From: a bacterium
GTDB lineage: Bacteria > AUK180
Reading direction: 5' to 3'
Length of the DNA stretch: 64,000 bases
NCBI GenBank assembly: GCA_023133295.1
Contig: JAGLWT010000116.1
Span: forward strand, 13,218 to 77,217
This document shows, piece after piece, positions 10,323-40,253 of the stretch. Position numbers and translations under genes: made by a program. A model generated the notes under the pieces. That model saw nothing but the letters and a program-made list of their open reading frames with translations. It searched no databases and was not told where the DNA came from. Each line of letters starts with the position of its first letter. The first letter of the stretch is position 1.

Positions 10323-10411
<89 letters not shown>

Positions 10412-14782: not shown

Positions 14783-14789
14783 TATCTCC

Positions 14790-22913: not shown

Positions 22914-22924
22914 ATCAATAATCT

Positions 22925-24877
22925 TTATTTTATCTCCATTTTACAGTTATTTTTATCTCCAATGGGATAAATGGGTTTCAAATTATCATTGGTAAACAGG
23001 ATATAACCGTTTTTGACACCACTTTCAATCTCCAGATCAATTCTTACATTTCCGTTCAGATCAAGCAAGTAGTGAGCAATATATTTCCATTTTTGATAAT
23101 CAGGTTTTCCGATATTATCATGAAAAAAAGCATAAGTCGGTTTATATTTTTCAAATCGTACGAAAAGACTCAATATCTTTTCTTGTTCATTCTCTTCAAT
23201 TGAGTAGCCTATAAATTTAAAATACTTAAAATTCATATTTATAATATGTTCCGGTTTCACTTTTCTTGTCTTTATTTTAGCGAAGTGATTTTGTCTATCA
23301 AATCTGAAAATATTAATATTTTCCAATTCAACATTGGATAATGAGTACGGTAATATTCCTAAGTTATTATCATAAAATCCTGCATGTGCCTTGGCGTTCA
23401 TTATTCTATATGGAAACTTACTTTTATAAATAACTTTTTCTATGTGAAGCAGATCCGGTCTAATACTATTTTTTAATTCAGCTGGACATGAATAAGTTGG
23501 AATGATCATTATATCATTTTCCTTTAATTCATTTGAATTCCAGCAATAATATTTAGCATCTATCTTCTCTAAATAGTATCTAAAGCCCCATTCACCCATA
23601 AACCAGACTCTGTTGTTTTTAACAGTAGATTTGATTTCATCAGCAAATCTTTTATAGCTTTCTGCAAATCTATAATCAGCATAAGTAATGCCGATGGTAT
23701 TTCCTAATGTAAGTATTAGCGTAATTGCAATGAACACTTTTTTTAATACTAAATTTAAATTCAAATTTATTAGATCATACGAAATAATAATTGTAATAAC
23801 CGGCAATGTAATTAATAAATATCTTGCAATGCCCAACGGCATAATTAAAGTACAAATGATTAAATACAAAAGAAAGCAAATTGATAAGAATTTTGTAACA
23901 GAATTATTGGGTCTTATAAATTCTTTAATAATTCTAAACATAATTAATAATCCGGAAAATAGAAATATTATAAATAATGACCTGCTTATAAAATTGAAAT
24001 TCCTGGTAAAAAATATCGTACAAGCGATAGTTATTAGTAATTGAATTATTAATAACTTTTTATTTACCGACTTAAGAAGATACAGAGCTATTATTGATAT
24101 GGGGAAAATAGTGGTGGAGCCTATCACTATAATATTTGAAATAAATTTAGGAATGAGCATTGATATAGCCCTTAGCTTTAAATTTGTGTCACCGGGCCAC
24201 ATTAACGCATATAATGGATGTGGAAATCCAAATTTTATTGTTGTGAAGATTATCCAGATCAATATTGATGATAAACAAATTAAAAAGGGTATATAATAAA
24301 TAAATTTCTTTTTTTTGAAAATAAGATAGTACAAAACAAACAAAAAAAGTAGAAATATACCCCGATAATCAATTCCCCATGATATTATTGAAGTAAGTCC
24401 TGATAAAATTAAGAGTAACACATTGTCGTTTTTTACTCCTTTTATAAAAAACAAAAATGCTAATAAAAAAAATGAAAACATTGGAACATCACTCATTATA
24501 CTAATTGACGAAGTAAACAGTATTGAAGAGAAGGAAAACAGAAAGATTGCTGTAAAAGAAAACAAATCAAATTCCTTTAGTATAAAGTACATAGAAACAA
24601 TAGATAAAATATAGAAAATAATATAAAATAAATGAAAATAAGTTTCATTTACCTCTCCTACAATTATATAACAGAAATGACAGTATAAAAAGTTTAGAGG
24701 TGGCTTGGTAAATTTGTAATACGGTACAGTTTCACCAAGAAAATATACATAATTCTCCTTCGAAAAGAAATTCTTTATAGGAACTTGACCATAAGGTGTC
24801 CTCTGAATAGATTCAATTGTCTTATGGTCATCTATATTGAATGGTTTGTTTACAAAAATTAACTGGACTGATAACAT
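22925..24877 (-). CDS. Multi-TM GT-C-like putative glycosyltransferase, tandem paralog of 21108..22913
   Basis: Same architecture. Loop motif YKFTKPPLNFLY. C-terminus FVRFEKYKPTYAFFHDNIGKPDYQKWKYI...GVKNGYILFTNDNLKPIYPIGDKNNCKMEIK. The 3' ends are about 85-90% identical to 21108..22913 at the nucleotide level (compare 21125-21200 with 22935-23010). Confidence 0.45.
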   Translation of the reverse strand: MLSVQLIFVNKPFNIDDHKTIESIQRTPYGQVPIKNFFSKENYVYFLGETVPYYKFTKPPLNFLYCHFCYIIVGEVNETYFHLFYIIFYILSIVSMYFILKEFDLFSFTAIFLFSFSSILFTSSISIMSDVPMFSFFLLAFLFFIKGVKNDNVLLLILSGLTSIISWGIDYRGIFLLFLFVLYYLIFKKKKFIYYIPFLICLSSILIWIIFTTIKFGFPHPLYALMWPGDTNLKLRAISMLIPKFISNIIVIGSTTIFPISIIALYLLKSVNKKLLIIQLLITIACTIFFTRNFNFISRSLFIIFLFSGLLIMFRIIKEFIRPNNSVTKFLSICFLLYLIICTLIMPLGIARYLLITLPVITIIISYDLINLNLNLVLKKVFIAITLILTLGNTIGITYADYRFAESYKRFADEIKSTVKNNRVWFMGEWGFRYYLEKIDAKYYCWNSNELKENDIMIIPTYSCPAELKNSIRPDLLHIEKVIYKSKFPYRIMNAKAHAGFYDNNLGILPYSLSNVELENINIFRFDRQNHFAKIKTRKVKPEHIINMNFKYFKFIGYSIEENEQEKILSLFVRFEKYKPTYAFFHDNIGKPDYQKWKYIAHYLLDLNGNVRIDLEIESGVKNGYILFTNDNLKPIYPIGDKNNCKMEIK

Positions 24878-25390
24878 GATGATCAGTAATAAAAAAAACT
24901 TAATTCCTTTTAAATTATATTTTTCTATAATAACTAACCATCCTTTTCTTTAAGGAACCTTTTCTCGCTTCCTTCGGTCATTTCAGATTTTTTTAAATCT
25001 CCTTCTCTATCGTAAGTCTGCTCCTTTTTGACATATTGCCTTCATTTCATCCGAAAGGACGAATTCCATTTCGCTACGCTGCATTCCATTCGCCCTTCAT
25101 GGTGTAAACTATTGTTTGTCTCACTTTCAAGGGAGAGCAGGACATTGTGACCTATCAGATTAGTTGAAATATATCGGATTTTTCAGAAAAAGTCAAATAA
25201 TTTATTGTTTCTATATATCAAAATATGCGTTTTTTTATTCTAACCATTTTGATTTGATAATATTTTTAAGTTCACGATTGCCTTTAACATTTAAATGATA
25301 AGTTTTATCGAGAGAGAGTTTATCCGGAATAAAAATGCAACTTTTTATATCTAATTCCTTATTAATTTTTTCAATATCATCCACCATTTT

Positions 25391-26218
25391 TTAAAAAAAA
25401 TAATACTTATTATCTTTTTTGTTCTGTGTCAACATATAATTCCCAAGTATAATAATTGACAAATTGTATTCATTCTGAATCTTTTTTATAAGATACCTAT
25501 ACCTATTTAATCCTTCATTATAATCTTTACTGTACTTTTTAAAATATTCATAACTGTCTTCTCCTTGATAGTATTGGCTTTTCTTTTTGTCTTTAATATT
25601 TAATGATAAATACATCGGGTGCAAAAGAGCAATCAATGGATCATTATTTATAATCCAGGGAAATGCTCTTTTATTGGGATAAACTATTGAATATTCATTC
25701 CCATTTTTAACTATTGTCGGGGCTGATCCTGGATAACGAAAGAACTCTCCAAAATCATTTCCTATATAGAAAATAATAAGCACATTTGAACCTTTTGAGA
25801 TATTATATTTTTTAAGTAAAAGATACTCTTGTATCGGCGAATATGTAATAACCCCGAAATTATAAAAATAATACCCATTCCCCTCTTTATTTAACAGAGA
25901 TGTAAAGAGATTGTTGTTTATAACATAATTATCAGTTTGAGAATCTCCCAATACATATATAGGAATCTCATTATCTCTTATTTTTCTGCAATTTCGATTA
26001 CCATATTTCCCTGTTTTGATCTTTGCCTTTGATCGTCGAGCCTGATAAAATTCATTGTGTTTAATTCCAAGTATATTATCATAAACATAGGAACCATATC
26101 CATTTTTACCCTTATTAAAACCACTGATATTACAATGAACAAATAAAATAATATCCAATAATAAAAAACAAATTATAATAAAAAGTAGTATCTTTAAAGC
26201 TTTTTTGAAGATATTCAT
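25391..26218 (-). CDS. SGNH/GDSL-family hydrolase-like protein (possible glycan O-acyl esterase or transferase)
   Basis: N-terminal TM anchor. IPIYVLGDSQTDNYV gives a GDS(x) block-I motif. Overlaps the upstream 773-aa gene by 4 nt. Confidence 0.45.
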   Translation of the reverse strand: MNIFKKALKILLFIIICFLLLDIILFVHCNISGFNKGKNGYGSYVYDNILGIKHNEFYQARRSKAKIKTGKYGNRNCRKIRDNEIPIYVLGDSQTDNYVINNNLFTSLLNKEGNGYYFYNFGVITYSPIQEYLLLKKYNISKGSNVLIIFYIGNDFGEFFRYPGSAPTIVKNGNEYSIVYPNKRAFPWIINNDPLIALLHPMYLSLNIKDKKKSQYYQGEDSYEYFKKYSKDYNEGLNRYRYLIKKIQNEYNLSIIILGNYMLTQNKKDNKYYFF

Positions 26219-28536
26219 TTTAAGTTCACCATTATAAATCTTTTATTTCTAATGGGTAAATACGGTCTATGATTCCTATCTGTAAAAATGATTTTATAGT
26301 CTCCATTATTCTTAGATATCTTAATATGACATTTAACAAAAGACCATACACCCATTTCTTCCATAGTTAATGAGTGCCAATTTTGTACTACAAGTTTATC
26401 ATCCTTATAATTATGAATAAACATAACCAGATCATCATCTATTTCCTTCATCTTTAAATATATTTCATAGATATAATTATTTTCTTTTTCAATCTTGTTA
26501 TACCCTAAAAAAATGAATTTTCTATAATTTAAATTTACTTTATGTTTATAATCCAAAGCTATTTTTTTGCTTTTATCTAACATTTGATTGCTATGGAAAT
26601 TCATCTTAAAAATATAATATCCATTTTCACAAAAAACCTGTTCTGCATTTAACTTTAAAACTTTATCTACAATAAAATTCCGATCCGGGCCCCATTGTAA
26701 AGAGTGTTTCCACATATTTTCAATAGAATTTACTTCAATGGCTTTAACATTTCGTTCCGGTTTATAAAAATAGGGATTTAATATTATATACTTTATACCC
26801 CATTTTTTTAAGATTTCATCCATTTCTTTTACTTTAGTTTTCTCATTAAAAAAGATTCTATAATCTTTCTCCCGTTGTAGAACATCTTTGGCATTGGGAT
26901 CAGCTACGAGTGGCCAAATTGCGAAAGCATAATTATTTGTAAATATAGCCATGTGATATGAAGTCCAGTGGTCTGATATTATATTTCCCCCTTTTATATT
27001 ATTTTTATTAAAATATCGTATAATTTCGGGCAACTTGCTTTTTTGTGATACACCTATATTATTCTTTATCAGTTTATAATCGCGTACCAAATTCTTAAAG
27101 ATTTTGGGACTTATAATCAGCAAAAAACATATTAGCAAAAAACCGAAATATTTTGTCTTCAATTTCTTTTTCAATTCAAGAATTATAAAAGCCAAAATTA
27201 AAAAAGCAGGTACAAATATACTTAATTTCGAAGCATAAGCACTACTGATTATTTTTGATAAACCTACTACAAGAATTGGATTTAACAACAACAAAGGAGA
27301 AAGGACTGCTGTTGATATCATAAATTGTAAAGTAGTGTTTCTTCTAATTTTTTTAATAAAAAACAATATTCCTAAAAAAGCTATCAATGGAGTAATCGGA
27401 TAAATTGTAGGTGGTAGTGTAAACATAATATAGATTTGGCGAAAGACAAATTTTGGATGAATAATAAACAGATTTTTTGTAAGAAAGACGAGGTGATCCG
27501 GAAGAAAGAAAGCTTGCTGTGCAAGTTGTGGATCATAATGTAATGGATTGTGAATACCATAAGATAACCATTTTAGAATGTAATAAGGAATATTGAAAAT
27601 CGTAACATAGAAAAAGATCTCTATAACCCTTCTATTACTTTTATCCCTCAATAATATTTTCACAAGAAATATCGCAAAGAGCGAAAGATAGAAAAGAATC
27701 ATATAGAATATCTGAAATTCCGTCAATATCAAAGAAATAATTATTGTAGTCCAAAGGTATTTTTTATCACTGCTGTCAAGGTATTTAATCATTTCAATTA
27801 GTGCCAACGGCAATATCGTATACATTGCAATAGCATCCGCGAGTGCAAATTTTCTCAATATCAATCGCTCATACCCTATTCCCCCGAAATGAAAAATAAA
27901 TACTAATACTACAAGTAAACCACCAAGATTTTTCTTCAAAAGATGTTTCCCAAAACAATATTGGGCAAATATAGCAATAAAGCTCATATACGCCGGAAGA
28001 TTTATCCATATTTTTAAAGGATCCAATCCGGAAATTTTGCTGTAAATCAATATCATAAAATGGTAAAGGCTAAAAGAGAATCTCGGATCCATCCCTTCAT
28101 TACTATAGACAAAATTCTTGTTTTGCACTATATTGTTAAAAAGAGATTTGTAAATTATGGAAAGGTTGTTAAGATCGTTTGCAATATCTCCTTTAATAAT
28201 ATAAAGCAATATTACATAAACCAGTGCTATACCAATTGTAACAGATGAATAAGTGTTAAGCGGTATGATTTTTGTGCTTTTTATTTTTTTTGAAAGCAAT
28301 AGAAACAAAAAGAACATTACTAATAAAATATATATTACATATACTAAAAATACCGTTTTTTTAAGCGATAGCTCAAAAAGAAACCCTAAACCACAAGGGA
28401 TATAATAAATTAAAAGGGAAAGCACAAAGAAATACGGAACTTTTTCAATACCTAATTCCTGAGAAAAGAAAATTCTATATATGACGATGCCTGGAACAAT
28501 AAATAAAAAAATAAAATAGAGTAATTCAATTATCAT
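26215..28536 (-). CDS. Large multi-TM membrane protein (773 aa), GT-C/YfhO-like putative glycosyltransferase, with a related C-terminal soluble domain
   Basis: About 14 TM helices followed by a roughly 280-aa C-terminal soluble region. The last 80 aa (DDLVMFIHNYKDDKLVVQNWHSL...GDYKIIFTDRNHRPYLPIRNK) resemble the C-terminal domain of the 601-aa and 650-aa proteins. The pseudogene at 20221..20819 is a paralog. Confidence 0.4.
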   Translation of the reverse strand: MIIELLYFIFLFIVPGIVIYRIFFSQELGIEKVPYFFVLSLLIYYIPCGLGFLFELSLKKTVFLVYVIYILLVMFFLFLLLSKKIKSTKIIPLNTYSSVTIGIALVYVILLYIIKGDIANDLNNLSIIYKSLFNNIVQNKNFVYSNEGMDPRFSFSLYHFMILIYSKISGLDPLKIWINLPAYMSFIAIFAQYCFGKHLLKKNLGGLLVVLVFIFHFGGIGYERLILRKFALADAIAMYTILPLALIEMIKYLDSSDKKYLWTTIIISLILTEFQIFYMILFYLSLFAIFLVKILLRDKSNRRVIEIFFYVTIFNIPYYILKWLSYGIHNPLHYDPQLAQQAFFLPDHLVFLTKNLFIIHPKFVFRQIYIMFTLPPTIYPITPLIAFLGILFFIKKIRRNTTLQFMISTAVLSPLLLLNPILVVGLSKIISSAYASKLSIFVPAFLILAFIILELKKKLKTKYFGFLLICFLLIISPKIFKNLVRDYKLIKNNIGVSQKSKLPEIIRYFNKNNIKGGNIISDHWTSYHMAIFTNNYAFAIWPLVADPNAKDVLQREKDYRIFFNEKTKVKEMDEILKKWGIKYIILNPYFYKPERNVKAIEVNSIENMWKHSLQWGPDRNFIVDKVLKLNAEQVFCENGYYIFKMNFHSNQMLDKSKKIALDYKHKVNLNYRKFIFLGYNKIEKENNYIYEIYLKMKEIDDDLVMFIHNYKDDKLVVQNWHSLTMEEMGVWSFVKCHIKISKNNGDYKIIFTDRNHRPYLPIRNKRFIMVNLK

Positions 28537-28786
28537 TTTTAGTTATTATATAAATCTTGGAAATCCCGAAAAACCATGAATAAGCATTTTTTATCAGGGA
28601 TTTTATGATTTTTTTAAAGCGGAGTGTAACAATACTGATATAATTTTCCTTATTATGGTAAGGGCTTTTTATCCCAAAAAGTAAACGAAAATATGGATTT
28701 GAATTTAAAACAAATCTGGACTGTATCCATGTAAACTTAAATATCAGTTTATTTTGAAATATTCTTTCTATTACGGTCATAGTCAT
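28526..28786 (-). CDS. Small hypothetical protein (86 aa) whose start and stop both overlap the neighbouring genes
   Basis: The ORF overlaps the start of the 773-aa gene (28526-28536) and the stop of the methyltransferase gene (28783-28786), consistent with translational coupling. No recognisable family. It could also be a spurious bridging ORF. Confidence 0.3.
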   Translation of the reverse strand: MTMTVIERIFQNKLIFKFTWIQSRFVLNSNPYFRLLFGIKSPYHNKENYISIVTLRFKKIIKSLIKNAYSWFFGISKIYIITKNDN

Positions 28787-29646
28787 CTACCCTCTACTTT
28801 TTTTGCATAAATTGTTGCCACATCAAAAAGATTGAGATATATTTTAATCTTTCCTATCTTATTTTTCAATAAAAATAAATATATCGCTTTAAATATAGGA
28901 AATTTTCTTTGAATATGATAAAAGATATGTCTTGAATAATAAAATTTCCCGTAATATTTAATAGATTTAATTTCAAACCCATTATTATTACAAAAGTATT
29001 TAATACTTTTCTTTGTAAAATAATTTAAATGATATGGGGGTATAAAAAGGTACCATTTTCTCCCCATTATTCGAGCAAATAGTGAATCTATCAGAGGAAC
29101 TGTTAATATGAGCGCTCCATTTGCATTAAGATCTTTACCTATGTTACGGAGCATTCGCGCGGGGTATTTTACATGTTCAAATATATCAAATGCGGTGATA
29201 ATATCATATTTCGTATCTTGTGAAGAGGTTTCGTAATTATGAACTTTCAGGTCAAGAAAGTATCTTTCCTTTCCAAGGGCAATAATCTCCTCTCCTATAT
29301 CAACACCCTGAAGCTGCATATTCGAAATTTCGGAAATGGAGTAAAGAAACTCACCGGAAGCACAACCGATATCTAAAAGAGAAGATGCTCGCTTGGAAAC
29401 ATGTTTCACAAGCCTTCTGAAAATCTGACACCAATTTCCATCAATGCAATCGTCAATATAATTTCCGTATCCTTCGTCACTATTTGGATTTACAAAGGAG
29501 TCCAGATTATATAGATCGTCATATCGTATATCTGCAAAACCCTCATAGAACACCGAGCCGCAATTTGAACATTTTACATGCTTTTTCACAATCTCTCTTT
29601 TCAATATCATAAGGGAGTTGCAGCCGCATAATTTACATTTTTTCAT
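28783..29646 (-). CDS. Class I SAM-dependent methyltransferase with an N-terminal zinc-ribbon (sugar C/O-methyltransferase-like)
   Basis: CKLCGC...CSNCGS zinc ribbon. LLDIGCASGEFL matches motif I (GxGxG-like). A later D..FEH(V) acidic motif is typical of Methyltransf_11/12-family enzymes. Confidence 0.65.
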   Translation of the reverse strand: MKKCKLCGCNSLMILKREIVKKHVKCSNCGSVFYEGFADIRYDDLYNLDSFVNPNSDEGYGNYIDDCIDGNWCQIFRRLVKHVSKRASSLLDIGCASGEFLYSISEISNMQLQGVDIGEEIIALGKERYFLDLKVHNYETSSQDTKYDIITAFDIFEHVKYPARMLRNIGKDLNANGALILTVPLIDSLFARIMGRKWYLFIPPYHLNYFTKKSIKYFCNNNGFEIKSIKYYGKFYYSRHIFYHIQRKFPIFKAIYLFLLKNKIGKIKIYLNLFDVATIYAKKVEGR

Positions 29647-29750: not shown

Positions 29751-31412
29751 TCATTTCTCAATTTTATAATCTCCCATTACGAGAATATCGATCCCTGTGC
29801 CGCTAAATGTATTTATCGCATCCTGAGGAGTGCATACGATCGGCTCTCCCCTGATATTGAAAGAGGTATTCAAAACCAACGGGATGCCCGTAAGTTTTTC
29901 AAATTCCCGTATTAGAGAATAATATCTCCCATTCTGTTCTTTACTTACCGTTTGAACCCTTGCCGTTCCGTCGACATGTACAACTGCAGGTATTTCTTTC
30001 CGCTTTTGCTGAACTGTATCGAAAACAATTGTCATATAAGGAGATTTACCGCAGCCGATAAAATAATCTCCGGCTTTTTCCTCAAGAACACTTGGTGCAA
30101 ACGGGCGGAAACCCTCTCGATGCTTGACCTTTTCATTAATAAGGTCTTTCATGTCCTTCTTTCTGGGATCCGCAAGAATGCTTCTGTTGCCGAGGGCGCG
30201 TGGTCCGAATTCCATTTTCCCCTGATACCAACCGACTATTTTCCCCCTGCTTATTTCCAAAGCCGTATCCTTTTCTATTTCACTTGATCTTGTAAAATGA
30301 AGTTTATTCTTTTTGAGAACATTCAATATCTCTTCATTGTCAAAAGCAGGACCCAGATAGGCATTATTCAACGGCAATTTACTTTCATTACCAAGTATAT
30401 TATAGTATCCGTACAGAGCGGCGCCAAGCGAAGTTCCCGCGTCATTGGAAGCGGGCTGGACATACATATCTTCGATATCGGTTTCTCTGAGCAACCGTCC
30501 ATTAGCAACCGAGTTCAGGGCGACGCCTCCTGCCATACAGAGATATTTCAAGGAGTATTTGTTGAGATAATACCGTACTACCTCTAGAAGCACTTCCTCT
30601 GTAACTTTTTGTAAAGAAGCGGCCATATCCATTTCAAGATCCGTAAATTCAGTAGCATTGTCATGGGGATAGAAGTTATGCTTTCTTTCAAATTTTTCAG
30701 TGATATAACTCTCCCAGCCATGTGAGAGATTGAATTTTGAAAGATCAAAAGAAAACCGTCCTTTGCCTACCCTTACAAGTGACATGATCTCAGAAAAATA
30801 CTTCGGTGTACCGTAAGGAGCCAGGCCCATGAGCTTACCTTCTCCATTATGTGCTTTGAACCCAAGATACTGAGTGATATCAGAATACAGCATTCCCAGG
30901 GAATGAGGGTAGTTCACATGTGCCACCTGTTCAATAAGGTTACCCCTTCCGATTCCAACGGTCATCGTCTCGAATTCCCCTGAATGATCAATTGATAGTA
31001 TAAGGGATTCGTCGAAGCCGCTCGGATAGAAAGCGGAGGCCATATGCGCCATATGATGTGATATCTTGACAAAGCGGGCATCTCTTAATATATCAATAGC
31101 CCTTACCTTTTTCCTGATGCCCAAAAGAGATGATACATATGAGCTCCTGGAATGAAGGTATTTTAACGATGAGGGAAATCGCAGCAGAAGAAATCCCGCC
31201 CGCTGAAACAGCATGGGAGTATTGAGCCAGGGAAAAACGATCAGCTCAGGAGAAGTATCATACTTGTTGCCGATAAGCTCAAGGGATTCATGCGGAAAAA
31301 CCGATGTATGTTTTTCTCTTGAAAGACGCTCCTCCTCGATCGAGAATACGGATTCCCCTGAGATCACAGTTATAGAAGAATCATGTGTATAACAATTCAA
31401 TCCCAGTATCAT
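29751..31412 (-). CDS. Carbamoyltransferase, NodU/CmcH family
   Basis: MILGLNCYTHDSSITVI...EEERLSREKH...HHMAHMASAFYPSGFDESLILSIDHSGE...ALNS...SFN matches the NodU/CmcH N- and C-terminal domains along its length. Confidence 0.85.
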   Translation of the reverse strand: MILGLNCYTHDSSITVISGESVFSIEEERLSREKHTSVFPHESLELIGNKYDTSPELIVFPWLNTPMLFQRAGFLLLRFPSSLKYLHSRSSYVSSLLGIRKKVRAIDILRDARFVKISHHMAHMASAFYPSGFDESLILSIDHSGEFETMTVGIGRGNLIEQVAHVNYPHSLGMLYSDITQYLGFKAHNGEGKLMGLAPYGTPKYFSEIMSLVRVGKGRFSFDLSKFNLSHGWESYITEKFERKHNFYPHDNATEFTDLEMDMAASLQKVTEEVLLEVVRYYLNKYSLKYLCMAGGVALNSVANGRLLRETDIEDMYVQPASNDAGTSLGAALYGYYNILGNESKLPLNNAYLGPAFDNEEILNVLKKNKLHFTRSSEIEKDTALEISRGKIVGWYQGKMEFGPRALGNRSILADPRKKDMKDLINEKVKHREGFRPFAPSVLEEKAGDYFIGCGKSPYMTIVFDTVQQKRKEIPAVVHVDGTARVQTVSKEQNGRYYSLIREFEKLTGIPLVLNTSFNIRGEPIVCTPQDAINTFSGTGIDILVMGDYKIEK

Positions 31413-32374
31413 TCAATTCTCCGTATATGATCGGCCAGAACCCCTGCAATATATCTATTGCCTTCCGGAGAAAAGTGAATATCATCCACATAAAGGTCAT
31501 CATAAAGCAAGAGATCGGTTTTGCGCATTTCCTGTGAGATATCCACAAAATCTACTCTGCATTCCTGAAACACTTCCCTCATTACTTCCTGATATGAAAA
31601 GTCCGCTCTATTGAGTAATTGATATCTTAGCGGAGTAATTATAAATATGGGGTGGATCTTTCTCTTCTCGCAGGTCATTTTTATTCTCTCTATCTTCTTT
31701 GTCAGATCTTTGCGCAAATACGGATCATTATATTTCATGGCAGCGGAAGCGTAAAATTCTTTGCTGTTATAAGCTTTTTCATAATTTCCGGCAAAGAGGA
31801 GCTTTGCTAATGCAAATAAATATGAATACGAAAAAGGGCGCTTTGTTACTATAACCTCGGCGTCTGTGTCAAGTTCCAGAAAACCTATCCCGTTCAGATG
31901 AAATGCATAAAGTATATCATCGATAAAATACTGCCATACTACAATTTCGGGGGGATTTTTCTGGAGATTCTTCTCCAATATCACAATATTTTGATCAAGT
32001 CCATAGCCGCAAACCCCCATATTGTGAACATTGAATTCTTTCAATTCGCCTTGAAGAAACACCGGGTAGGTTTCATCGTCCTCAACTCCCAGGCCGGCAG
32101 TAATGGAATCGCCTATGCAGATAATGTTTTTTTCTGACTTCTCTATGGTATTCAAATTCCTGTACCCTGATGAATTTATTGTAAATTTCTTATTTCGCCA
32201 CATATATGACGATGATTTTCTATAACGATATCCAAGTTCACTGTCTTTTTCGAAAATTCTTCTGTCATAATCCTGTAGCTTTGATATGGGGTCCAATAGT
32301 CTTGCAAGGCCTTCAAAAAGCAGAAAAAGGATCAAAAAAAACAATAAATACTTAGACAGCCGTTTTATCAACAA
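31409..32374 (-). CDS. SGNH/GDSL-family hydrolase-like protein
   Basis: N-terminal TM. IICIGDSITAGLGV block-I motif. Later DDIHFSPEG, similar to the DxxH catalytic block. Overlaps both flanking carbamoyltransferase genes. Confidence 0.55.
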   Translation of the reverse strand: MLIKRLSKYLLFFLILFLLFEGLARLLDPISKLQDYDRRIFEKDSELGYRYRKSSSYMWRNKKFTINSSGYRNLNTIEKSEKNIICIGDSITAGLGVEDDETYPVFLQGELKEFNVHNMGVCGYGLDQNIVILEKNLQKNPPEIVVWQYFIDDILYAFHLNGIGFLELDTDAEVIVTKRPFSYSYLFALAKLLFAGNYEKAYNSKEFYASAAMKYNDPYLRKDLTKKIERIKMTCEKRKIHPIFIITPLRYQLLNRADFSYQEVMREVFQECRVDFVDISQEMRKTDLLLYDDLYVDDIHFSPEGNRYIAGVLADHIRRIE

Positions 32375-34043
32375 TTAAATAATCTCCTAATATAAGCACA
32401 TCAATATCTGTTTTCAAGAATGTCTCTATCGCCTCGGCAGGAGAGTTGACGATAGGTTCTCCCCTGATATTAAATGAGGTGTTCAATACAACCGGAACAC
32501 CTGTGATCATTTCAAATTCTCTGATAAGATCATAGTATCCCGGATTTTGCTTTCTATTTACCGTCTGAACCCTGGCCGTACCGTCAATATGCACTACCGC
32601 GGGAATATCATTTTTCTTTTCATCCAATACATCAAAAACAAAAAGCATAAATGGAGAAGAGACACACCCTTTAAAATACTCCCCTGCCTTCTCTTCGAGA
32701 ATGCTCGGCGCAAAAGGTCGAAATCCCTCGCGATGCTTTACCCTTTCATTCAGAATATCTTTCATTTCCCCTTTTCGGGGATCCGCAAGAATACTTCTAT
32801 TGCCAAGGGCGCGGGGGCCGAATTCCATCTTTCCCTGATACCAGCCGACTATCTTGCCGCGGCTTAATTCCTGAGCTGCTGCTTTTTCAATATTAGCCCG
32901 CTTACTATAGGGAAGTTTATTCTTATGGAGTTGAATCTTGATATCATCATCACTGTAGCTGGAACCAAGGTATGCATTATCCATGATATATTTCCGTTCC
33001 CGCCCCAATATTGAATGTTGAACATATAGCGCTGCTCCGAGCGCGGTTCCCGCATCATTTGCCGACGGTTGAACAAAAATATCCTCAAAGGGACCTTCCC
33101 TTTGAATGAGACCGTTTGCAACCGAGTTCAGCGCCACGCCCCCAGCAAGGCAGAGTTTTTTCTCGCCGGTCTCTTCATAGAGATTCTCGGAAAGCAAAAG
33201 CATATACTTCTCCAGTATTCTCTGAAGGGATGCTGCCATATTCTCATGGAATGTTGTTATTTCGCTTTCCGGGTCTCTTCTTGGACCGAATCGGCGGATG
33301 AACTTCTTTGAGATATCCCTTTCTACTGAATTCTGAAATTCAAAATAACTGAGGTCTATTCTCATCCTATTTTCCTTCACGGTGATCATCTCATCAAGAT
33401 CATTGAAATACTCCGGCTTTCCGTAAGAAGAAAGGCCCATTACCTTTCCATCGCCGGAATGCACCTGAAACCCCAGATATCTTACAATGGCGGAATAAAA
33501 ATAGCCTAATGAATGGGGAAATGGATTTTCGTATATTTTCTCGATACGGTTTTTCGATCCCTTTGCCAAAAGATAGGTGGATCTTTCTCCGGAACCGTCA
33601 ATTGACAATATTGCCGCGCTGTTAAAAGGTGTGGGAAAGAAAGAAGATGCCGCATGGGCAAGGTGATGTTCTACAAAATATGTCTTTTTTACTTTCAGCG
33701 GAATATATTTTCTGACATTCAGCATCTTAAAAAAATCTCCGCCATGTGTTCTACCCCAACTCAGGCTTTTTGGGAAATTCCTTATTATGGTGGGTAGTCT
33801 TCCCTGAATTCCCAGGAGAGGTTTCACATAATATGCAAGGATAATCTCCTCATCCTTTGCCAATATTCCATTTTTAAAAAGATAATCAAATATTCCATGC
33901 GGAAATTTTCCGGTGTATTTTTCTCTGTTGAAACGCTCCTCTTCGGCTGCGAAGAGGATACTGCCGCCTTCATCGATGACGGCAACAGAGCTAAGATGCC
34001 TAAAGCAATTCAATCCGATTATTTTCATCTGTAAATTATACAT
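32352..34043 (-). CDS. Carbamoyltransferase, NodU/CmcH family (paralog)
   Basis: IIGLNCFRHLSSVAVIDEGGSILFAAEEERFNREKYTGKFPH...HHLAHAASSFFPTPFNSAAILSIDGSGE. The C-terminal 170 aa are nearly identical to the first carbamoyltransferase (RALGNRSILADPRK...KHREGFRPFAPS...LNTSFNIRGEPIV). Confidence 0.85.
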   Translation of the reverse strand: MYNLQMKIIGLNCFRHLSSVAVIDEGGSILFAAEEERFNREKYTGKFPHGIFDYLFKNGILAKDEEIILAYYVKPLLGIQGRLPTIIRNFPKSLSWGRTHGGDFFKMLNVRKYIPLKVKKTYFVEHHLAHAASSFFPTPFNSAAILSIDGSGERSTYLLAKGSKNRIEKIYENPFPHSLGYFYSAIVRYLGFQVHSGDGKVMGLSSYGKPEYFNDLDEMITVKENRMRIDLSYFEFQNSVERDISKKFIRRFGPRRDPESEITTFHENMAASLQRILEKYMLLLSENLYEETGEKKLCLAGGVALNSVANGLIQREGPFEDIFVQPSANDAGTALGAALYVQHSILGRERKYIMDNAYLGSSYSDDDIKIQLHKNKLPYSKRANIEKAAAQELSRGKIVGWYQGKMEFGPRALGNRSILADPRKGEMKDILNERVKHREGFRPFAPSILEEKAGEYFKGCVSSPFMLFVFDVLDEKKNDIPAVVHIDGTARVQTVNRKQNPGYYDLIREFEMITGVPVVLNTSFNIRGEPIVNSPAEAIETFLKTDIDVLILGDYLIVDKTAV

Positions 34044-34083: not shown

Positions 34084-34788
34084 TCATTTTTTCAGTCTTT
34101 CGCTGAAGAGGACAAAAAAGGCATAAATAGCATCTATCCAATGAATTTTGCTTTCCTCGACCTTTCTCGGAGTATAAGATATCGGGATCTCACAGAATCT
34201 ATAATTGAATTTAAAGATCTTTGCTGTGATCTCACACTCCATTTCAAATCCGTCATATTTCAGATTCAACGACTCCAGAATGCCTTTTCTGAACACCTTA
34301 TAGCCCGATGCTTCATCTGTAATATTTTTTCCATATAGTATCCGCACCGTCAGATTAATGAGTTTATTCGCCAGGAGCCGGGGAATTGATTTCATTTTTA
34401 CTTTTTTCAAAAATCTTGAACCGTATACAACATCGGCCTGCCCTGCTATGATCGGGAGTAACAAACCGGATATCTCTTCCGGATAATACTCCAGATCGGC
34501 ATCCTGAATAACAACAATATCACCGGAAGACACTTTCAAGCCTTTTTTTATTGAATAACCCTTTCCTCTGTTCACGCGGTTTTCACAAAGGATATCATAA
34601 AGATTGAAGTTCTCTTTCAATATTGCGTTCGAACTGTCTGTCGAACCGTCGTCCACTACGATGACTTCATGTTTAAATGAAAGCTTGGCGATCCGCTCAA
34701 GGACCTTCAGGATAGTTTCCGATTCATTGAAAGCCGGAATGATTATCGAGATCATCGCGTCAAATTCCGCGTTCTTCATATTTCTCAT
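34084..34788 (-). CDS. Family-2 glycosyltransferase, polyprenol-phosphate sugar synthase (Dpm1/ArnC/GtrB)-like
   Basis: ISIIIPAFNESETI, VIVVDDGSTDSS, VVIQDADLEYYPEE (DAD) and GSRF motifs at 234 aa are typical of Dpm1-like GT2 enzymes, which supply lipid-linked monosaccharide donors to GT-C enzymes. Confidence 0.7.
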   Translation of the reverse strand: MRNMKNAEFDAMISIIIPAFNESETILKVLERIAKLSFKHEVIVVDDGSTDSSNAILKENFNLYDILCENRVNRGKGYSIKKGLKVSSGDIVVIQDADLEYYPEEISGLLLPIIAGQADVVYGSRFLKKVKMKSIPRLLANKLINLTVRILYGKNITDEASGYKVFRKGILESLNLKYDGFEMECEITAKIFKFNYRFCEIPISYTPRKVEESKIHWIDAIYAFFVLFSERLKK

Positions 34789-37310
34789 TTTTCATCCCAT
34801 AAGATCCGGTACAATAAGGGGTAGTTGCTTCTATCTTCTATTGTGATATCGGGAAGGGATGATCCTTGGTCATTAAAATCGTAGTAGGTGAACAAATATC
34901 TAAAATAATCCTCCATTACAAGCGTCTTAGCACTCGCAAATTCATTGTATATCTTCAATGAATCAGCAGGACCCCAATCCTTATCAATATATTTTTTTGT
35001 GTACATCTCAATGGTAGTCCTTATAAGATCTTTTTCATCCTGATTCAGTCTTTTCTCCTCCTTTAGAAGAAAGGGAAAAAGTTCAGGAAAAAATAGACCG
35101 ACAGAACGAAGATCCCTGATAAACCCCTCGCCCAGGACAGAATATGTGTTTCCGTATAATTTATTATGACGCAGAGCAAAGCGGCAAGGTTCAATAATGC
35201 TACTTTTCATTATTTTTTCGTAAAGTTCCTTGAAAGCAGAACTTTCCGAAGGATTTATCAGGTATTTAAGATAGGGATATTCTGAAAATTCTCCTTCAAG
35301 TATCATACTCGCAAAAGAACTGGTGCAATCTGGATCGATCCTGTACGGGAGATTCCATATGGTGTAAAGCGGCCCTTTCAGGTAGGAGTAGGAAGAGAAA
35401 TATTCCGCTAAGACAACGATATTCTCTTTTTCGGCAATCTTCGTATCGAAATTAAATAAGTAATAGAGCGGATTGAAAATATTCTCTTCGGAATCCTTCA
35501 GAAAAGGAGGAAAAGGGCTGTAAAGGTCTTTCAGGAGAAGATATTTTCTGTCTTTTTCAATTCTAACGAGAGCCGATATTTTATCAAATCTCTTTTTGCC
35601 AAATCCAAATGGTGAATTTCTTAAGGATATTATTTCCTCGATCTCCTTCCTTCTGTCTGATAATTCCCCATAAGTCCTTGCGGCTTCATAATTTCCAAGC
35701 AGTATATTTATTACCGCTATATTTTCTGTGGTATATATCGGTTTGCGAAGCAGTCCTTTTCCCTCGCCGTATTCACCTGTTCGGAATTTAGCGATTGCCA
35801 ATGAAAAAAAGTTTTCCGCGGAGGGGTCGTATTTGACCAGCTCCTCAAGTTCGTCTGAGATCTGCTGCCATCTATTTTCAAAGCGGTAGTATTTCAAAAG
35901 CATTTTCCTTGTGTGTTTCAGTTCCGGTACCAGATATTTAGAAAAAAGGAGTAATTCTTCCGCCTCGCTTTTCTTTCCGCGCTGAAGCAGAATTTCTGCT
36001 TTCAGATTTAAAAGTTCTGGATAAAGATCCTCATCCAATGCAGAATCAATATATTTAATCGCCTGTTCATAATCACCTTTTTTATAGGATTCCACTGATT
36101 TTGCATTGAATTCAAGATAGCGCTTATAAAAGATCTGATGATTTCCAAGTTCGCCTGTGAACTGGATTATATTAATAGAGATCGGGATCAGCAGGAGTGC
36201 CCATTTTATGCTTCCGGGCAGGGCTATGCTCCGGATTTTATATTTGAACGGATAAAATAGGAGTATGAAGATCAAGACAGCGATCGGCTGATGCAAAGGA
36301 AAATCAAATATAAGGGATATTAAAAATGCCAGAAGGGGGGCGCTTCGGGATGTTGCCTGACCAAGAAGATATTCTGATAAGGAAATAAATACGATCAGAA
36401 ATAAGAAAATGCCGATGAATCCTCCCTCAACACCCATGTGTATGATCTCGCTATGGGCGCGCCTGACCAGAAATTTGGAGGTGGAGTAAAGCCCTTTTTC
36501 TTTACTTACTGCAGCAAGGTTCTTCTTATATGCCGATGGAAACCTGCCTAGGCCGGTGCCGAAAGGATTTTCAATTACTGTTTTCAAGCCGGTCCTGATT
36601 ACGGTTCTTCTGGTATTTAAAGGGTGAGCAACGGTTATTACAAGGAAAAATCCCAGAATGATGGCAGTATAGAATATTATTCTCCTCAGAATACTTTTTT
36701 TGATTAATGAGATCAAAATAGACAGCAGGGTTATTGCTATCATTATTTTAGAAAATGTCATCAAAAGAGCTATCCCTGAAACAAATAGAAAAAAGTAATT
36801 TCTCTTTTTGAAAAAGAACATTTCTGCAAGAAATCCCATCGTCAGTACTACCGCCAGTTCATTAGGATTCCCCATAGTCGAGAACACACGCTTACCCGAC
36901 CAGTCAAATTCCCAGAATGAAAAATCTATCTTGAAAAATTGCAGGACTGCGTACAGCGAAACAAGGAATATCGAAACACGCAGCCAACGATAAAGAATAT
37001 CGGTATTGAAACTGGATTCCGAGATCAAAAGAAAAAGCAATACCTGAACAAGGCAGAAAAATCCACACCAGGATGGATTGACAGCAAAGAAGACCAGAGC
37101 GGCGAAAAAGATCAGAATCGATCTGAATGTAACCCTCTTAATAGTAAAAACCACGGGCAAAAAAGATATTAACAGTAATTTGGGAAGAAGAAAAGAACTT
37201 TTAAGTATTGGAAGAAATATCAGTACCGATAGAAATATCAATGCCCCGGCAAAATGTACGGTATATGTTTTCTTTCCCATTGATTTTTTTTCTACATCTT
37301 GTTTCTGCAT
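34785..37310 (-). CDS. Wzy_C (O-antigen ligase / PglL-type oligosaccharyltransferase)-like polytopic membrane protein with C-terminal TPR repeats
   Basis: About 10-12 TM helices with a HSEIIHMGVEGGFIG loop, resembling the Wzy_C His/Arg catalytic loop. The C-terminal about 450 aa contain TPR-like repeats (YEQAIKYIDSALDEDLYPELLNLKAEILLQRGKKSEAEELL...). Confidence 0.5.
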   Translation of the reverse strand: MQKQDVEKKSMGKKTYTVHFAGALIFLSVLIFLPILKSSFLLPKLLLISFLPVVFTIKRVTFRSILIFFAALVFFAVNPSWCGFFCLVQVLLFLLISESSFNTDILYRWLRVSIFLVSLYAVLQFFKIDFSFWEFDWSGKRVFSTMGNPNELAVVLTMGFLAEMFFFKKRNYFFLFVSGIALLMTFSKIMIAITLLSILISLIKKSILRRIIFYTAIILGFFLVITVAHPLNTRRTVIRTGLKTVIENPFGTGLGRFPSAYKKNLAAVSKEKGLYSTSKFLVRRAHSEIIHMGVEGGFIGIFLFLIVFISLSEYLLGQATSRSAPLLAFLISLIFDFPLHQPIAVLIFILLFYPFKYKIRSIALPGSIKWALLLIPISINIIQFTGELGNHQIFYKRYLEFNAKSVESYKKGDYEQAIKYIDSALDEDLYPELLNLKAEILLQRGKKSEAEELLLFSKYLVPELKHTRKMLLKYYRFENRWQQISDELEELVKYDPSAENFFSLAIAKFRTGEYGEGKGLLRKPIYTTENIAVINILLGNYEAARTYGELSDRRKEIEEIISLRNSPFGFGKKRFDKISALVRIEKDRKYLLLKDLYSPFPPFLKDSEENIFNPLYYLFNFDTKIAEKENIVVLAEYFSSYSYLKGPLYTIWNLPYRIDPDCTSSFASMILEGEFSEYPYLKYLINPSESSAFKELYEKIMKSSIIEPCRFALRHNKLYGNTYSVLGEGFIRDLRSVGLFFPELFPFLLKEEKRLNQDEKDLIRTTIEMYTKKYIDKDWGPADSLKIYNEFASAKTLVMEDYFRYLFTYYDFNDQGSSLPDITIEDRSNYPLLYRILWDEK

Positions 37311-37352: not shown

Positions 37353-40253
37353 TCAGAATTCATGCTGAAGATCCGCGATCTCCATATCGCCCGAGGAATT
37401 GCCGGAAGTAAATCTCAGTAATTTGCCGTCACGGATCTTATATCTTACATAACCCACAGAGAGATCGTAGAAGTTAGTACCGGCCTTATCCTTCAGATAA
37501 CTAAAATCCTTCTGGAATTGAGCAAGTTCCTTGCCCTTGTTGAAATAATCAATATGGAAAAGCATGTCCATGGGCAATGCGAGATTCAGCATATCCTTGA
37601 GTTTGTAATTATACAGAAAGCGTGTGGGCATAAGCACCACATCGACCTTATCGAAATACTGCTTGTATGACATCAATTTATCCACTTCCCCCCTGTCCAG
37701 ATCAGCGGCTAATAAAAACTGTTTTCTTGAGATCTCAATACCCTTTTTCTTCAAGATATAATCGGCCTTAAGTACCATATTATCCTGAAAATAATCCTCT
37801 TTGCCGCTGCTTTCCGGGTATATAGCGTATATCTCAAACACATATTCACTGCTTCCCACTTTCTTACTCTCTTTCAGAATATAATCACCTGCCTTTACCA
37901 CTTCATAGGGTATTTTACTGGACAATAGGGTGTTGCTTACCTTTTGACATGTTTCATATCTGCTTTTTACCCAATAAGCCTGGCCTCTTTCAAGTAAATA
38001 CTCATTATCAGTAGATTTCAAGAAGTCTTCATATGTAGATGCGGATGCTTTTTGCACATTTGTGGGAAGATATACCTTTCCCACGGGATATTCTCTTAGT
38101 ATTGTAGTAACCGCCGAATTATTATCCTGAGAGTAATCCGTCAGGATCAGATCGTCTATGCGGTTGATACCGTAAGACATCAAAATGCTCATGACCACAC
38201 GGTCGGCCTCGTCCCATTCCCTTCTGTTATAGAGAGAATGTTTCCCCGCATTTATCAATACATTTCTCCCCGAAGGCGTTTTGATGAAAACGACATTGCC
38301 TTTGGAAAGGGAGAAGAAGGTTATGTCAACTTCATTATCCCTCTTTGTTGGTATCAGCAGAAGTATGGAGCCCAGAAGTACAATGGCGATTATGATCGCG
38401 GGCAGAAACTTAAATATACGCGCCCTCTTGTCGTGTTTCTGTTTGAATACCGTCAATTTATATTTATAGTCAAGCCATTTACTTTTGATATACGGCAGAT
38501 TGATAATGATAAGCAGCGCTATAAAATAGAATATCAGCCCGCCGAAGGTGAACTTCTTCACATATGGATATGGAAAAGTGGTCGAAAAGAAATGCGCGGA
38601 CTGTATGAAGAGCTTCAACAGCAGATAATTAGCGGCATTGATGAACAGTCCCATATAGATACCGACAACGGGTATCAGAGACAGAATTGCCGCGATCATC
38701 CCCAATTGAACATTGATACCGATGAGGGGTATGGCGATATAATTGGCGTACATACCCGCAATTGGATATCTGCCGAAATAATATGCGGAAAGCGGGATCA
38801 TCATTCCCAGCTGTATCGCGAATTGTGCCGATATAAAGGAGATCAGCCAAGGTGGCATCTTCCTGTAGGATGGAGCGGCAAGTTGCTTTTTTTCCTCAAA
38901 TTTATTGGATAAATACAAAAACACCCCGGAAGCGGCAAAAAATCCCCACAGAAATAGTGAATTAAAGAAATAACTCTTGAAGATGATGATCAGCGCGGTG
39001 AAGGAGGCGAAAACAAAGCAAGCCGCCCAAAAGGTATATCCGATCAGATACTTCTTGAAAATATCATCCAGAAACGGCGTGATAAGGACAAGAGACAGCA
39101 CCGCTCCAAACGATAGAGTAAAGGATGCCTCTCTCAATAGAAGCGGGTTCACAAATAATATCATAAGAGCGGCAACGGAAATACCCACCTCGATCGAGGT
39201 TCGCAGACCCTTGCCGGAAAGTACCCAGGCCATCAGCACGGCACTGTTCATTATTACAGCACGGAGAGTGGATGGCCGTCCGCCGGTGATTATCGCGAAG
39301 ATCACTAAAAAGAGTATTGTAATAACGGCATAAACTCTCCTCGGTACGCCTATCAATGAAAAGATCCCCACAAATAATATCATAAGGATCGTAACATGAA
39401 GCCCCGACACTGCCAGTACATGATTCACGCCCGCCCTTTTGAACTCATCCTTTATCTGATATCGGGCATCGGGCAAGAAGATCCCGTCCATGCCGTATCT
39501 CAGCCCCAGAGTAATACCGCCTAAAAATGCCGACTCCGGGTATTTCACCGTTCTTCGAATGGTCTTCAAGAACTTCTGCTTAATACCCAACGAGAAGGCT
39601 ACAAAGGGATTCTTCTTTGTCAGCTCATCAGGGGTGATGCGTGACGCATCCTTGAAATATGCTGTATAATATACTCCGGTGCTTTCCAGAAATTTTCTAT
39701 AATCAAAGCCGCCCGGATTCGTTGCTTTCTGCGGCCTCTTCAAGTCTGTCTCAAAGGTGATATAGTGGCCGTATGAGAGAAACTCCGGGTATTTGCCTTT
39801 CTTGAACGAATAATTAAGAAGGATCTTCCCCTTTTTTACTTCTTTCGAACGGGCGCCGTTGACCGAGATCTTCAGGGGCTTGATATAAACCCGCATCCTG
39901 TTCTCAAAATATTCGGGCTCTCTGTACACATATCCTTCGACCGTTGCGGATACGAGATCTTCTCCACCGGTAACGGTCAGTATATGCCCTTTTCTGTCAA
40001 TATTCAGAGCATTGTGCGTAAAGGCAAGGCCCAGTACAAATGGCAGAAGGTAAAAAGCCATCAGCATAGGTATCTTCTTGATATAACCCCAGCGCTTATA
40101 GCTATAAAAACCCACAGCTACAGCCGCGAGAAGAATCGCGGCAGAGAGGGCAAAAAAGATAAGCGGAGAGGCCAAAGGAAAGACGCCGAAACTGATGAGG
40201 ATGCCGAGGACAAAGAACAATGTAAAGAGATAGAGTTTATTTTCCCAATACAT
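37353..40253 (-). CDS. comEC: ComEC/Rec2-family DNA internalisation channel with N-terminal DUF4131-like region and a degenerate C-terminal metallo-beta-lactamase domain
   Basis: Competence domain signature AGVNHVLAVSGLHVTILMILFVGIF...RPSTLRAVIMNS. The C-terminal MBL-like fold has DDLILTDYSQDNNSAV where canonical ComEC has LVLTHxDxDHxGG, so the HxHxDH metal ligands are missing. Confidence 0.75.
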   Translation of the reverse strand: MYWENKLYLFTLFFVLGILISFGVFPLASPLIFFALSAAILLAAVAVGFYSYKRWGYIKKIPMLMAFYLLPFVLGLAFTHNALNIDRKGHILTVTGGEDLVSATVEGYVYREPEYFENRMRVYIKPLKISVNGARSKEVKKGKILLNYSFKKGKYPEFLSYGHYITFETDLKRPQKATNPGGFDYRKFLESTGVYYTAYFKDASRITPDELTKKNPFVAFSLGIKQKFLKTIRRTVKYPESAFLGGITLGLRYGMDGIFLPDARYQIKDEFKRAGVNHVLAVSGLHVTILMILFVGIFSLIGVPRRVYAVITILFLVIFAIITGGRPSTLRAVIMNSAVLMAWVLSGKGLRTSIEVGISVAALMILFVNPLLLREASFTLSFGAVLSLVLITPFLDDIFKKYLIGYTFWAACFVFASFTALIIIFKSYFFNSLFLWGFFAASGVFLYLSNKFEEKKQLAAPSYRKMPPWLISFISAQFAIQLGMMIPLSAYYFGRYPIAGMYANYIAIPLIGINVQLGMIAAILSLIPVVGIYMGLFINAANYLLLKLFIQSAHFFSTTFPYPYVKKFTFGGLIFYFIALLIIINLPYIKSKWLDYKYKLTVFKQKHDKRARIFKFLPAIIIAIVLLGSILLLIPTKRDNEVDITFFSLSKGNVVFIKTPSGRNVLINAGKHSLYNRREWDEADRVVMSILMSYGINRIDDLILTDYSQDNNSAVTTILREYPVGKVYLPTNVQKASASTYEDFLKSTDNEYLLERGQAYWVKSRYETCQKVSNTLLSSKIPYEVVKAGDYILKESKKVGSSEYVFEIYAIYPESSGKEDYFQDNMVLKADYILKKKGIEISRKQFLLAADLDRGEVDKLMSYKQYFDKVDVVLMPTRFLYNYKLKDMLNLALPMDMLFHIDYFNKGKELAQFQKDFSYLKDKAGTNFYDLSVGYVRYKIRDGKLLRFTSGNSSGDMEIADLQHEF

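Follow-up and report, generated by a model that had tools for sequence, protein, structure and literature searches.

Gene organization of the locus

The 64,000-nt stretch analyzed here, hereafter the window, belongs to contig JAGLWT010000116.1 (assembly GCA_023133295.1) of a bacterium of the GTDB lineage AUK180. Its reverse strand carries two genes for carbamoyltransferases (CTs) of the NodU/CmcH type, designated CT-A and CT-B, with a gene for an SGNH/GDSL-family protein between them (Table 1). This arrangement had been proposed in a preliminary description of the window, and Pfam, PDB sequence, and fold matches bore it out. The results presented below make it likely that the CTs are two old paralogous class III enzymes flanking a membrane-anchored SGNH protein, and that this set is the tailoring block of a cell-envelope glycan operon.

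The SGNH gene and CT-A overlap by 4 nt, and CT-B and the SGNH gene by 23 nt, as had also been described, the latter overlap being 20 nt when counted from the second of the two tandem TTG codons with which the SGNH open reading frame (ORF) opens. A GGAG motif is located 10–13 nt 5′ of the TTG, and the second TTG is the start in the public annotation. The longest ORF of CT-B begins at 34043, but the public protein P0002 (558 aa) is a 100% match to CT-B from the ATG at 34028, and this second ATG is most likely the start. The public protein P0001 is identical to CT-A over 553 aa. The antisense ORFs within the CT genes had no Pfam match, nor did an 86-aa ORF located farther along the row.

Family assignment and conserved residues

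In both CTs, Carbam_trans_N is followed by Carbam_trans_C (Kae1-like and YrdC-like domains) above the Pfam gathering scores, and both proteins aligned along their entire length with the PDB sequences of NovN, GdmN, and TobZ (E 1e-74 to 1e-91). By these matches, CT-A and CT-B are class III O-carbamoyltransferases of the NodU/CmcH/TobZ type with predicted activity. They are not NodU orthologues, since the NCBIfam NodU equivalog (NF041651) gave only partial matches of 173.5 and 176.1 bits against a cut-off of 1000.

In class III CTs, the YrdC-like domain forms carbamoyl-AMP from carbamoyl phosphate and ATP, while the Kae1-like domain is responsible for acceptor binding and carbamoyl transfer, with a substrate pocket that varies among enzymes (PMC9633730). 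The metal ligands of GdmN are H133, H137, D156, and D333, and its general base is H27 (PMC9633730). The catalytic residues of the window enzymes were mapped to GdmN and NovN by motif alignment, and family alignments of 118 and then 193 members were prepared from proteins retrieved with CT-A and CT-B as queries. Residues H10, H119, H123, D142, and D324 (CT-A numbering) are present in both CTs and are invariant or near-invariant among the 193 relatives, and the invariant columns of the YrdC-like domain, from W395 to P440 and onward, are likewise all present in both. By homology, the YrdC-like domains of the two enzymes would make carbamoyl-AMP from carbamoyl phosphate and ATP, and the Kae1-like domains would transfer the carbamoyl group to a bound acceptor, using an Fe/His-His-Asp-Asp site and the general-base His.

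In the YrdC core, the sole deviations from the majority residue are F396Y and R399K, which are common to CT-A and CT-B. Other changes are private to one copy. Residue 11 of CT-B (558-aa form; 33996–33998), directly after the general-base His, is Leu, where 181 of the 193 relatives have Asp, and among these relatives CT-B is the only protein with Leu at this position. Changes unique to CT-A are L48G, G246N, and R250H. The Kae1-like domain of each CT has substitutions at positions that are otherwise more than 94% conserved, and the copy-private substitutions at columns conserved to at least 85% are all located in the N domain.

As a side observation on the family, a 900-aa Nanoarchaeota carbamoyltransferase (P0013) contains an extra PF14528 domain within an otherwise normal CT, pointing to an insertion, for instance of an intein or homing endonuclease.

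Similarity between CT-A and CT-B

The two CT proteins are 51% identical overall, with 40% identity in residues 1–370 and 69% in residues 371–553, and their Kae1-like acceptor-binding domains are only 38–40% identical. The contrast between diverged N-terminal halves and more similar 3′ parts, to which the preliminary description had drawn attention, is real and exceeds that of comparable family pairs. The 3′ halves had also been called near-identical, but this did not hold: the BLASTN alignment was limited to 796 nt at the 3′ end and had 69% identity, the longest exact run common to both 3′ parts was 15 nt, and the repeat search gave 69% over 300 nt between the CT genes. In 60-nt windows, the identity of the 3′ parts was 55–78%, except for an island at 30141–30260 with 80–88% (register offset 2613 nt). 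A match of 85–90% reported between 30170–30240 and 32790–32860 exists, at 87%, but its partner is located at 32783–32853; the register had been off by 7 nt, and the segment originally paired with it is 30% identical when aligned without gaps. Pairwise alignment thus yielded a conserved block within 3′ halves that fall short of near identity.

Across the 90 nt of highest similarity (Table 1), the 14 nucleotide differences are all synonymous, with no nonsynonymous change. No other block of the family is as conserved as this island (~76% identity), and in 37 unrelated CT genes its mean identity was 76% at the amino acid and 65% at the nucleotide level. The identity profile of CT-A and CT-B follows the family-wide conservation profile along the protein (r = 0.92), and the identity of CT-A to other family members rises from 37% in the N part to ~60% in the C part. 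Since the adenylate-forming chemistry is universal, the 3′ parts would be conserved throughout the family, and since the acceptor site differs between enzymes, the 5′ parts would diverge; most of the divergence pattern of the two CTs is attributable to this opposition of conserved carbamoyl-AMP chemistry and variable acceptor site. By sequence comparison, CT-A and CT-B appear to be anciently diverged paralogues whose similar 3′ parts mainly represent the conserved catalytic domain of the family. The island at 84–88% would be an invariant core motif of this domain under purifying selection, with silent sites near saturation.

Residual mosaic signal and origin of the CT pair

An excess of similarity over the family expectation was observed in the C-terminal part. 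In a scan for the segment of maximum excess, residues 323–551 of CT-A had 66.8% identity to CT-B against 54.8% expected (simulated p = 0.005), while the residues outside this segment had 38.1% against 38.6% expected. The C identity of 7,693 family pairs with an N identity of 38–43% was 56.7 ± 4.0%, and only 0.04% of these pairs reached the value of CT-A and CT-B. Among composition-matched pairs with similar N identity, none of 670 reached their C-terminal identity (66–69%). Shared genome composition was therefore rejected as the source of the similarity. Purifying selection alone leaves the excess over the 670 matched pairs unexplained, which tells against family conservation as the whole account. 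A general homogenization of co-resident CTs was also rejected, since the three other co-resident CT pairs, in loci L010, L038, and L039, were without such an excess.

The excess would need no recombination if, after a plain tandem duplication or independent acquisition of two family members, the acceptor domains had diverged at an accelerated rate through sub- or neofunctionalization, with the C-terminal similarity as the surviving signal of sisterhood. We put this account only a little below an even chance. It agrees with the close tracking of family conservation, with the confinement of the copy-private changes to the N domain, and with the finding that CT-B is the best overall match of CT-A (51% against at most 48% for the others). 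Both N domains are also farther from the family than those of typical members, with a median N-part identity to relatives of 36.7% for CT-A and 41.1% for CT-B against a family median of 44.3%. However, three proteins of other organisms (P0130, P0025, and P0003) scored above CT-A as database hits to CT-B, the sisterhood of the N domains had a bootstrap value of 5% in neighbor-joining trees, and by a rough hand estimate acceleration leaves more than half of the shortfall in the N domains unexplained. In a database of 5.8 billion sequences, no protein more than 53% identical to CT-A or CT-B was found. The three higher-scoring proteins also indicate that CT-A and CT-B did not arise by a simple, recent tandem duplication.

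An ancient partial gene conversion or domain-level recombination is held more tentatively. In such an event, homogenization would have affected the final ~230 codons, possibly together with the initial ~40, or one copy would have received a foreign central acceptor segment. The segment scan and the rarity of so high a C identity among family and composition-matched pairs point to such an event, the three co-resident pairs without excess argue against a general effect of residence in the same genome, and F396Y and R399K would be derived changes common to both copies. In the C part, CT-A and CT-B were mutual best matches among 192 relatives (69.4% against 66–67% for the next best) and sisters in the neighbor-joining tree with 81% bootstrap, whereas in the N part CT-A ranked 128th for CT-B. 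Identical amino acids in the C half were encoded by the same codon at a frequency of 51%, against 38% expected from codon usage (z 3.1–3.15), and those in the N half at 43% against 39% (z 1.1), the excess being limited to the C half and the first 40 codons (z 3.4). By the Nei-Gojobori method, the synonymous divergence (dS) was measurable in residues 323–551 (1.75, with a nonsynonymous divergence, dN, of 0.25) and saturated in residues 1–322 (dN 0.66).

Other observations run counter to an ancient recombination. Both N domains, that of CT-A above all, are fast evolvers against every relative, as the medians given above indicate, and among the 192 relatives CT-B was still the 8th-best N-part match of CT-A, less than one standard error behind the first. 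A rough rate-aware hand estimate placed the common path at ~11% for the N part and ~29% for the C part, a difference of only about 2 standard errors. As a control, CT-A or CT-B was compared with CT genes of 81 unrelated genomes (162 comparisons); the C-half z had a mean of 0.37 (sd 0.98), and its maximum of 3.02, for CT-B and an unrelated Nitrospirota gene, equaled the synonymous excess of the window pair (z 3.0 against 3.1). The silent-site signal of CT-A and CT-B is faint at most. No tract with markedly lowered synonymous divergence relative to its flanks was found anywhere along the two genes, the lowest dS values being 1.25–1.75.

Recent or ongoing gene conversion keeping the 3′ halves nearly identical, as the single ~90-nt island at 84–88% might suggest, is extremely improbable and was rejected, because the 14 differences in the 30 identical codons of the island are all synonymous and dS is near saturation (island 1.47 with dN ~0.01; 1.5–1.75 in the 3′ part; at least 1.25 throughout), in addition to the 69% identity over the 3′ 796 nt and the exact runs of at most 15 nt. 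The partial gene conversion considered plausible in the preliminary description is thereby excluded as a recent event, while the modest excess in residues 323–551 is compatible with an ancient one.

The SGNH protein

The SGNH protein of the window has an N-terminal hydrophobic helix and conserves G87, D88, and S89 (the GDS of block I), N117 and G119 (oxyanion blocks), and H299 (block V). Lipase_GDSL_2 matched it with 51.9 bits against a cut-off of 32.9, and the positive-inside rule suggests that the SGNH domain faces outward. Foldseek matches of its AlphaFold model (pLDDT 68) were TesA, acetyl-xylan esterases, and the PatB acetyltransferase (E 1e-6 to 1e-4), that is, generic SGNH esterases and transferases only, a result that does not separate a hydrolase from a transferase.

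A word-index search for close relatives of this protein gave nine matches, and the three that were looked up adjoin sulfatases or unrelated genes, not CTs. The CT association of its family came out only from a profile search among CT neighbors, as described in the next section; against the profile of CT-adjacent SGNH proteins, the window SGNH scored 238 bits (1e-73). A second SGNH-family gene of the window, u275, is interrupted by an in-frame TAA (25391–25393) inside a T8A6 tract, beyond which block V (DKTYHLNVKGN) continues in the same frame. The interruption could reflect a pseudogene, a slippage-prone tract, or an assembly error.

Recurrence of the CT/SGNH pair

A scan of one genome per species yielded 80 loci with CT relatives of 38–47% identity, from many bacterial phyla and archaea. 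Pfam assigned the gene directly downstream of the CT (74 loci) to SxtJ in 17 cases, to Lipase_GDSL_2 in 12 (5 also to ALGX), and to DUF5989 in 3; directly upstream (73 loci), SxtJ was found 7 times and Lipase_GDSL_2 twice. A profile was started from the window SGNH and extended by iteration over the CT neighborhoods; it detected 37 family members, no more than 5 kb from the CT, at 27 of the 80 loci. In 12 cases the SGNH gene lies on the CT strand and follows the CT immediately, 2–155 nt away, and an N-terminal hydrophobic segment is present in 31 of the 37 proteins. The succession of a CT and a membrane-anchored SGNH recurs among genomes, and CT-B with the SGNH gene is its example in the window.

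An SxtJ profile, searched against ORFs of less than 230 aa, detected SxtJ-like small membrane proteins at 38 of the 80 loci, with an SGNH protein also present at 19. The usual order is an SxtJ-like gene, a ~50-aa ORF, the CT, and the SGNH gene (e.g., L030, L048, L056, and L063). It corresponds to sxtJ, sxtK, sxtI, and sxtL in the saxitoxin clusters. In the whole 64 kb of the window, neither an SxtJ-profile match in six frames nor an SxtK homologue was found, and 8 of the 27 SGNH-bearing loci are likewise without SxtJ.

A second CT within 10 kb was present at only 4 of the 80 loci. In a Terriglobales metagenome-assembled genome (MAG; L038, 7330–14969), genes for a sulfotransferase, an SGNH protein, a CT, an SGNH protein, and a CT stand in a row. 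Between its two CTs the identity is only 31%, and it is only the first that the CTs of the window both resemble, so the CT-SGNH-CT arrangement was rejected as one inherited unit and would have arisen independently. The sulfotransferase beside this CT/SGNH set echoes sxtN of the saxitoxin clusters. The Omnitrophica MAG L010 (2798–11740), one of the co-resident pairs without C-terminal excess, has a gene content like that of the window, with a CT, a GT2, a methyltransferase, and a second CT ~3.5 kb on. A literature search on carbamoyltransferases together with SGNH proteins, and on O-antigen carbamoylation, found nothing relevant.

Genomic neighborhood

The CT/SGNH genes belong to a co-directional row on the reverse strand, in the order ComEC, a Wzy_C/TPR membrane protein, a family 2 glycosyltransferase (GT2), CT-B, SGNH, CT-A, a methyltransferase, the 86-aa ORF, a 773-aa protein with 13 hydrophobic segments, the second SGNH protein, a PMT_2/GT-C-like protein, and a 601-aa protein with 11 hydrophobic segments. 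Many junctions overlap by 4–23 nt, and the largest gaps are the 104 nt between CT-A and the methyltransferase gene and 514 nt after the second SGNH gene. We infer operon-level coupling of the CT, SGNH, GT2, and membrane protein genes. The top NCBIfam similarities of the GT2 were AglJ, ArnC, PpgS, and a Dol-P-hexose transferase, all below the curated cut-offs; the enzyme probably synthesizes a polyprenyl-phosphate sugar.

Three of the four closest CT-B relatives that were looked up directly follow a small GT2 gene (P0003, P0025, and P0131), one of them in a GT2-PMT_2-CT trio, and a CT-A-like relative sits in a sugar cluster of the nonulosonic-acid type. The GC content is 38–43% in the CT/SGNH/GT2 block (43% in CT-A), 26–32% from 21108 to 29646, and 41% in the whole window, and the boundary coincides with the 104-nt spacer between CT-A and the methyltransferase gene, which is the first gene of the low-GC block.

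Table 1. Features of the window, with positions counted from its first nucleotide
Feature	Position	Strand	Remarks
CT-B, class III O-carbamoyltransferase	32352..34043	−	longest ORF 563 aa; Carbam_trans_N 1.3e-57, Carbam_trans_C 4.5e-75
SGNH/GDSL protein, membrane-anchored	31409..32374	−	320–321 aa; Lipase_GDSL_2 1.7e-13, weak ALGX match
CT-A, class III O-carbamoyltransferase	29751..31412	−	553 aa; Carbam_trans_C 1.7e-75, Carbam_trans_N 8.7e-56
Island of top similarity, CT-A aa 389–418	30159..30248	−	RGKIVGWYQGKMEFGPRALGNRSILADPRK; 30/30 aa and 76/90 nt identical
Partner island in CT-B	32772..32861	−	register offset 2613 nt
Segment with CT-A/CT-B identity above family expectation, CT-A aa 323–551	29760..30446	−	partner ~32373–33059; end of Kae1-like domain, linker, and YrdC-like domain
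Small soluble GT2	34084..34788	−	234 aa; directly upstream of CT-B; Glycos_transf_2 1.6e-30
Membrane protein	34785..37310	−	841 aa; ~10 hydrophobic segments; weak Wzy_C (O-antigen ligase/polymerase-like) and TPR matches, below gathering scores; overlaps GT2 by 4 nt
SAM-dependent methyltransferase	28783..29646	−	104 nt downstream of CT-A; Methyltransf_23 1.7e-22; GC 32%
Three multi-pass membrane proteins	26215–28536, 22925–24877, 21108–22913	−	11–13 hydrophobic segments each; GC 26–28%; PMT_2 8.9e-6 for 22925–24877
Second SGNH-family gene (u275)	25237..26218	−	N-terminal anchor, GDSQT block; profile E 2e-20
ComEC (DUF4131 and Competence) and two helix-hairpin-helix (ComEA-like) proteins	37353–43868	−	directly upstream of the glycan operon
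tRNA	10326–10411	−	Rfam; sole Rfam find, far from the locus
TIM, PGK, and GAPDH in a row	10864–13805		

After the TIM, PGK, and GAPDH genes (13832–18035), the window contains a weakly PorV-like ORF and a gene for a 1081-aa protein with a weak FlgD_ig match (E 6e-4, below the gathering score).

Proposed function and comparison with known systems

From homology and gene context, the locus would serve the tailoring of an envelope glycan that is possibly built on a lipid carrier. The GT2 would probably assemble the glycan unit on polyprenyl phosphate, and the GT-C-like proteins encoded downstream would then transfer it to the final acceptor. As the preliminary description had reasonably proposed, CT-A and CT-B would most likely differ in the putative hydroxyl or the putative sugar that they carbamoylate. 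The SGNH protein is probably an outward esterase or acyl-transfer enzyme editing an O-acyl or O-carbamoyl substituent, with its role and the compartments of the steps likewise predicted.

Some points weigh against a tailoring block of this kind. The roles are predicted ones, and GT2 adjacency, although seen in the closest CT-B relatives, is rare in the wider CT family (2 of 73 upstream neighbors). The low-GC block looks separately acquired and may have an origin of its own. An outward SGNH and CTs that need cytoplasmic ATP may not act on one intermediate. In addition, D11L could alter the transfer activity of CT-B.

Systems in which a small GT2 polyprenyl-phosphate sugar synthase works with a GT-C transferase are of the ArnC/ArnT and GtrB/Gtr types. 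The window resembles them in that its GT2 is nearest to ArnC, AglJ, PpgS, and Dol-P-hexose synthases and shares an operon with PMT_2/GT-C-like proteins, but its scores are all below the curated cut-offs, and no flippase was identified. We know of no described carbamoylation of a lipid-linked sugar.

Two O-carbamoyltransferase paralogues of one family also occur together in rhizobia, where NodU acts at C-6 and NolO at C-3 of Nod factors (PMC5080398), that is, at different hydroxyls of one sugar, which offers a model for two enzymes with two sites. The window CTs differ from these enzymes by their scores of 174–176 bits against the NodU cut-off of 1000, and nod genes are absent. With TobZ, GdmN, and NovN, they have in common the two-domain architecture, the metal ligands, and the general base. 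The identity to these enzymes is ~30–35%, however, and the known enzymes tailor antibiotics. As in TobZ, both window CTs are without the C-terminal dimerization domain, whereas the GdmN clade has this extra domain of ~100 aa; its absence has been tied to polar acceptors (PMC9633730). WapO (PA5005) is a putative lipopolysaccharide-core heptose 7-O-carbamoyltransferase of Pseudomonas (PMC8005017) and, compared by context alone, resembles the window CTs as a CT within an envelope-glycan biosynthesis cluster, but it occurs singly, among genes for core glycosyltransferases and kinases, and no SGNH partner has been described for it.

In saxitoxin clusters, sxtI-J-K-L encode an O-carbamoyltransferase, two small proteins of unknown function, and the GDSL lipase SxtL (PMC2679770, PMC2885083, PMC2684587), for which a decarbamoylase activity has been proposed only (PMC2679770). 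The window shares with this set a class III CT directly associated with a GDSL/SGNH gene, and its SGNH is the positional equivalent of the SxtL-type SGNH genes, a link that rests on synteny and common Pfam families. It differs in being without SxtJ and SxtK, in having two CTs, and in belonging to a glycan operon rather than an alkaloid cluster. To our knowledge, the CT/SGNH/SxtJ/SxtK set is known only from saxitoxin clusters and has never been characterized, and we know of no function for it outside them.

A bolder proposal, which we regard as speculative and rather unlikely in its entirety, is that the CT/SGNH pair, elsewhere joined by SxtJ and SxtK, is a widespread uncharacterized bacterial and archaeal module that installs and edits O-carbamoyl groups of envelope glycans across the membrane and that the saxitoxin pathway borrowed. 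The module would be doubled in the window (two CTs and two SGNH proteins), its CTs having a C-terminal adenylate-forming domain in common by ancient domain-level recombination and different acceptor domains.

Implications

Paralogous tailoring enzymes with a conserved catalytic and a diverged substrate domain are to be expected, and the CT pair adds little in this respect. The case shows how a conserved family motif can mimic a conversion tract at the nucleotide level, a question that is settled by counting synonymous differences. The points of wider interest are only the mild mosaic signal and the recurrent module of CT and SGNH, in part with SxtJ and SxtK. This module accompanies the CT clade in a quarter to a half of the sampled genomes, across many phyla and mostly in glycan contexts. 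Consequently, the biochemical role of SxtJ, SxtK, and SxtL could be studied in ordinary glycan systems, and the few known cases of O-carbamoylation, the core heptose of Pseudomonas and the Nod factors, may understate how common this modification is in envelope glycans.

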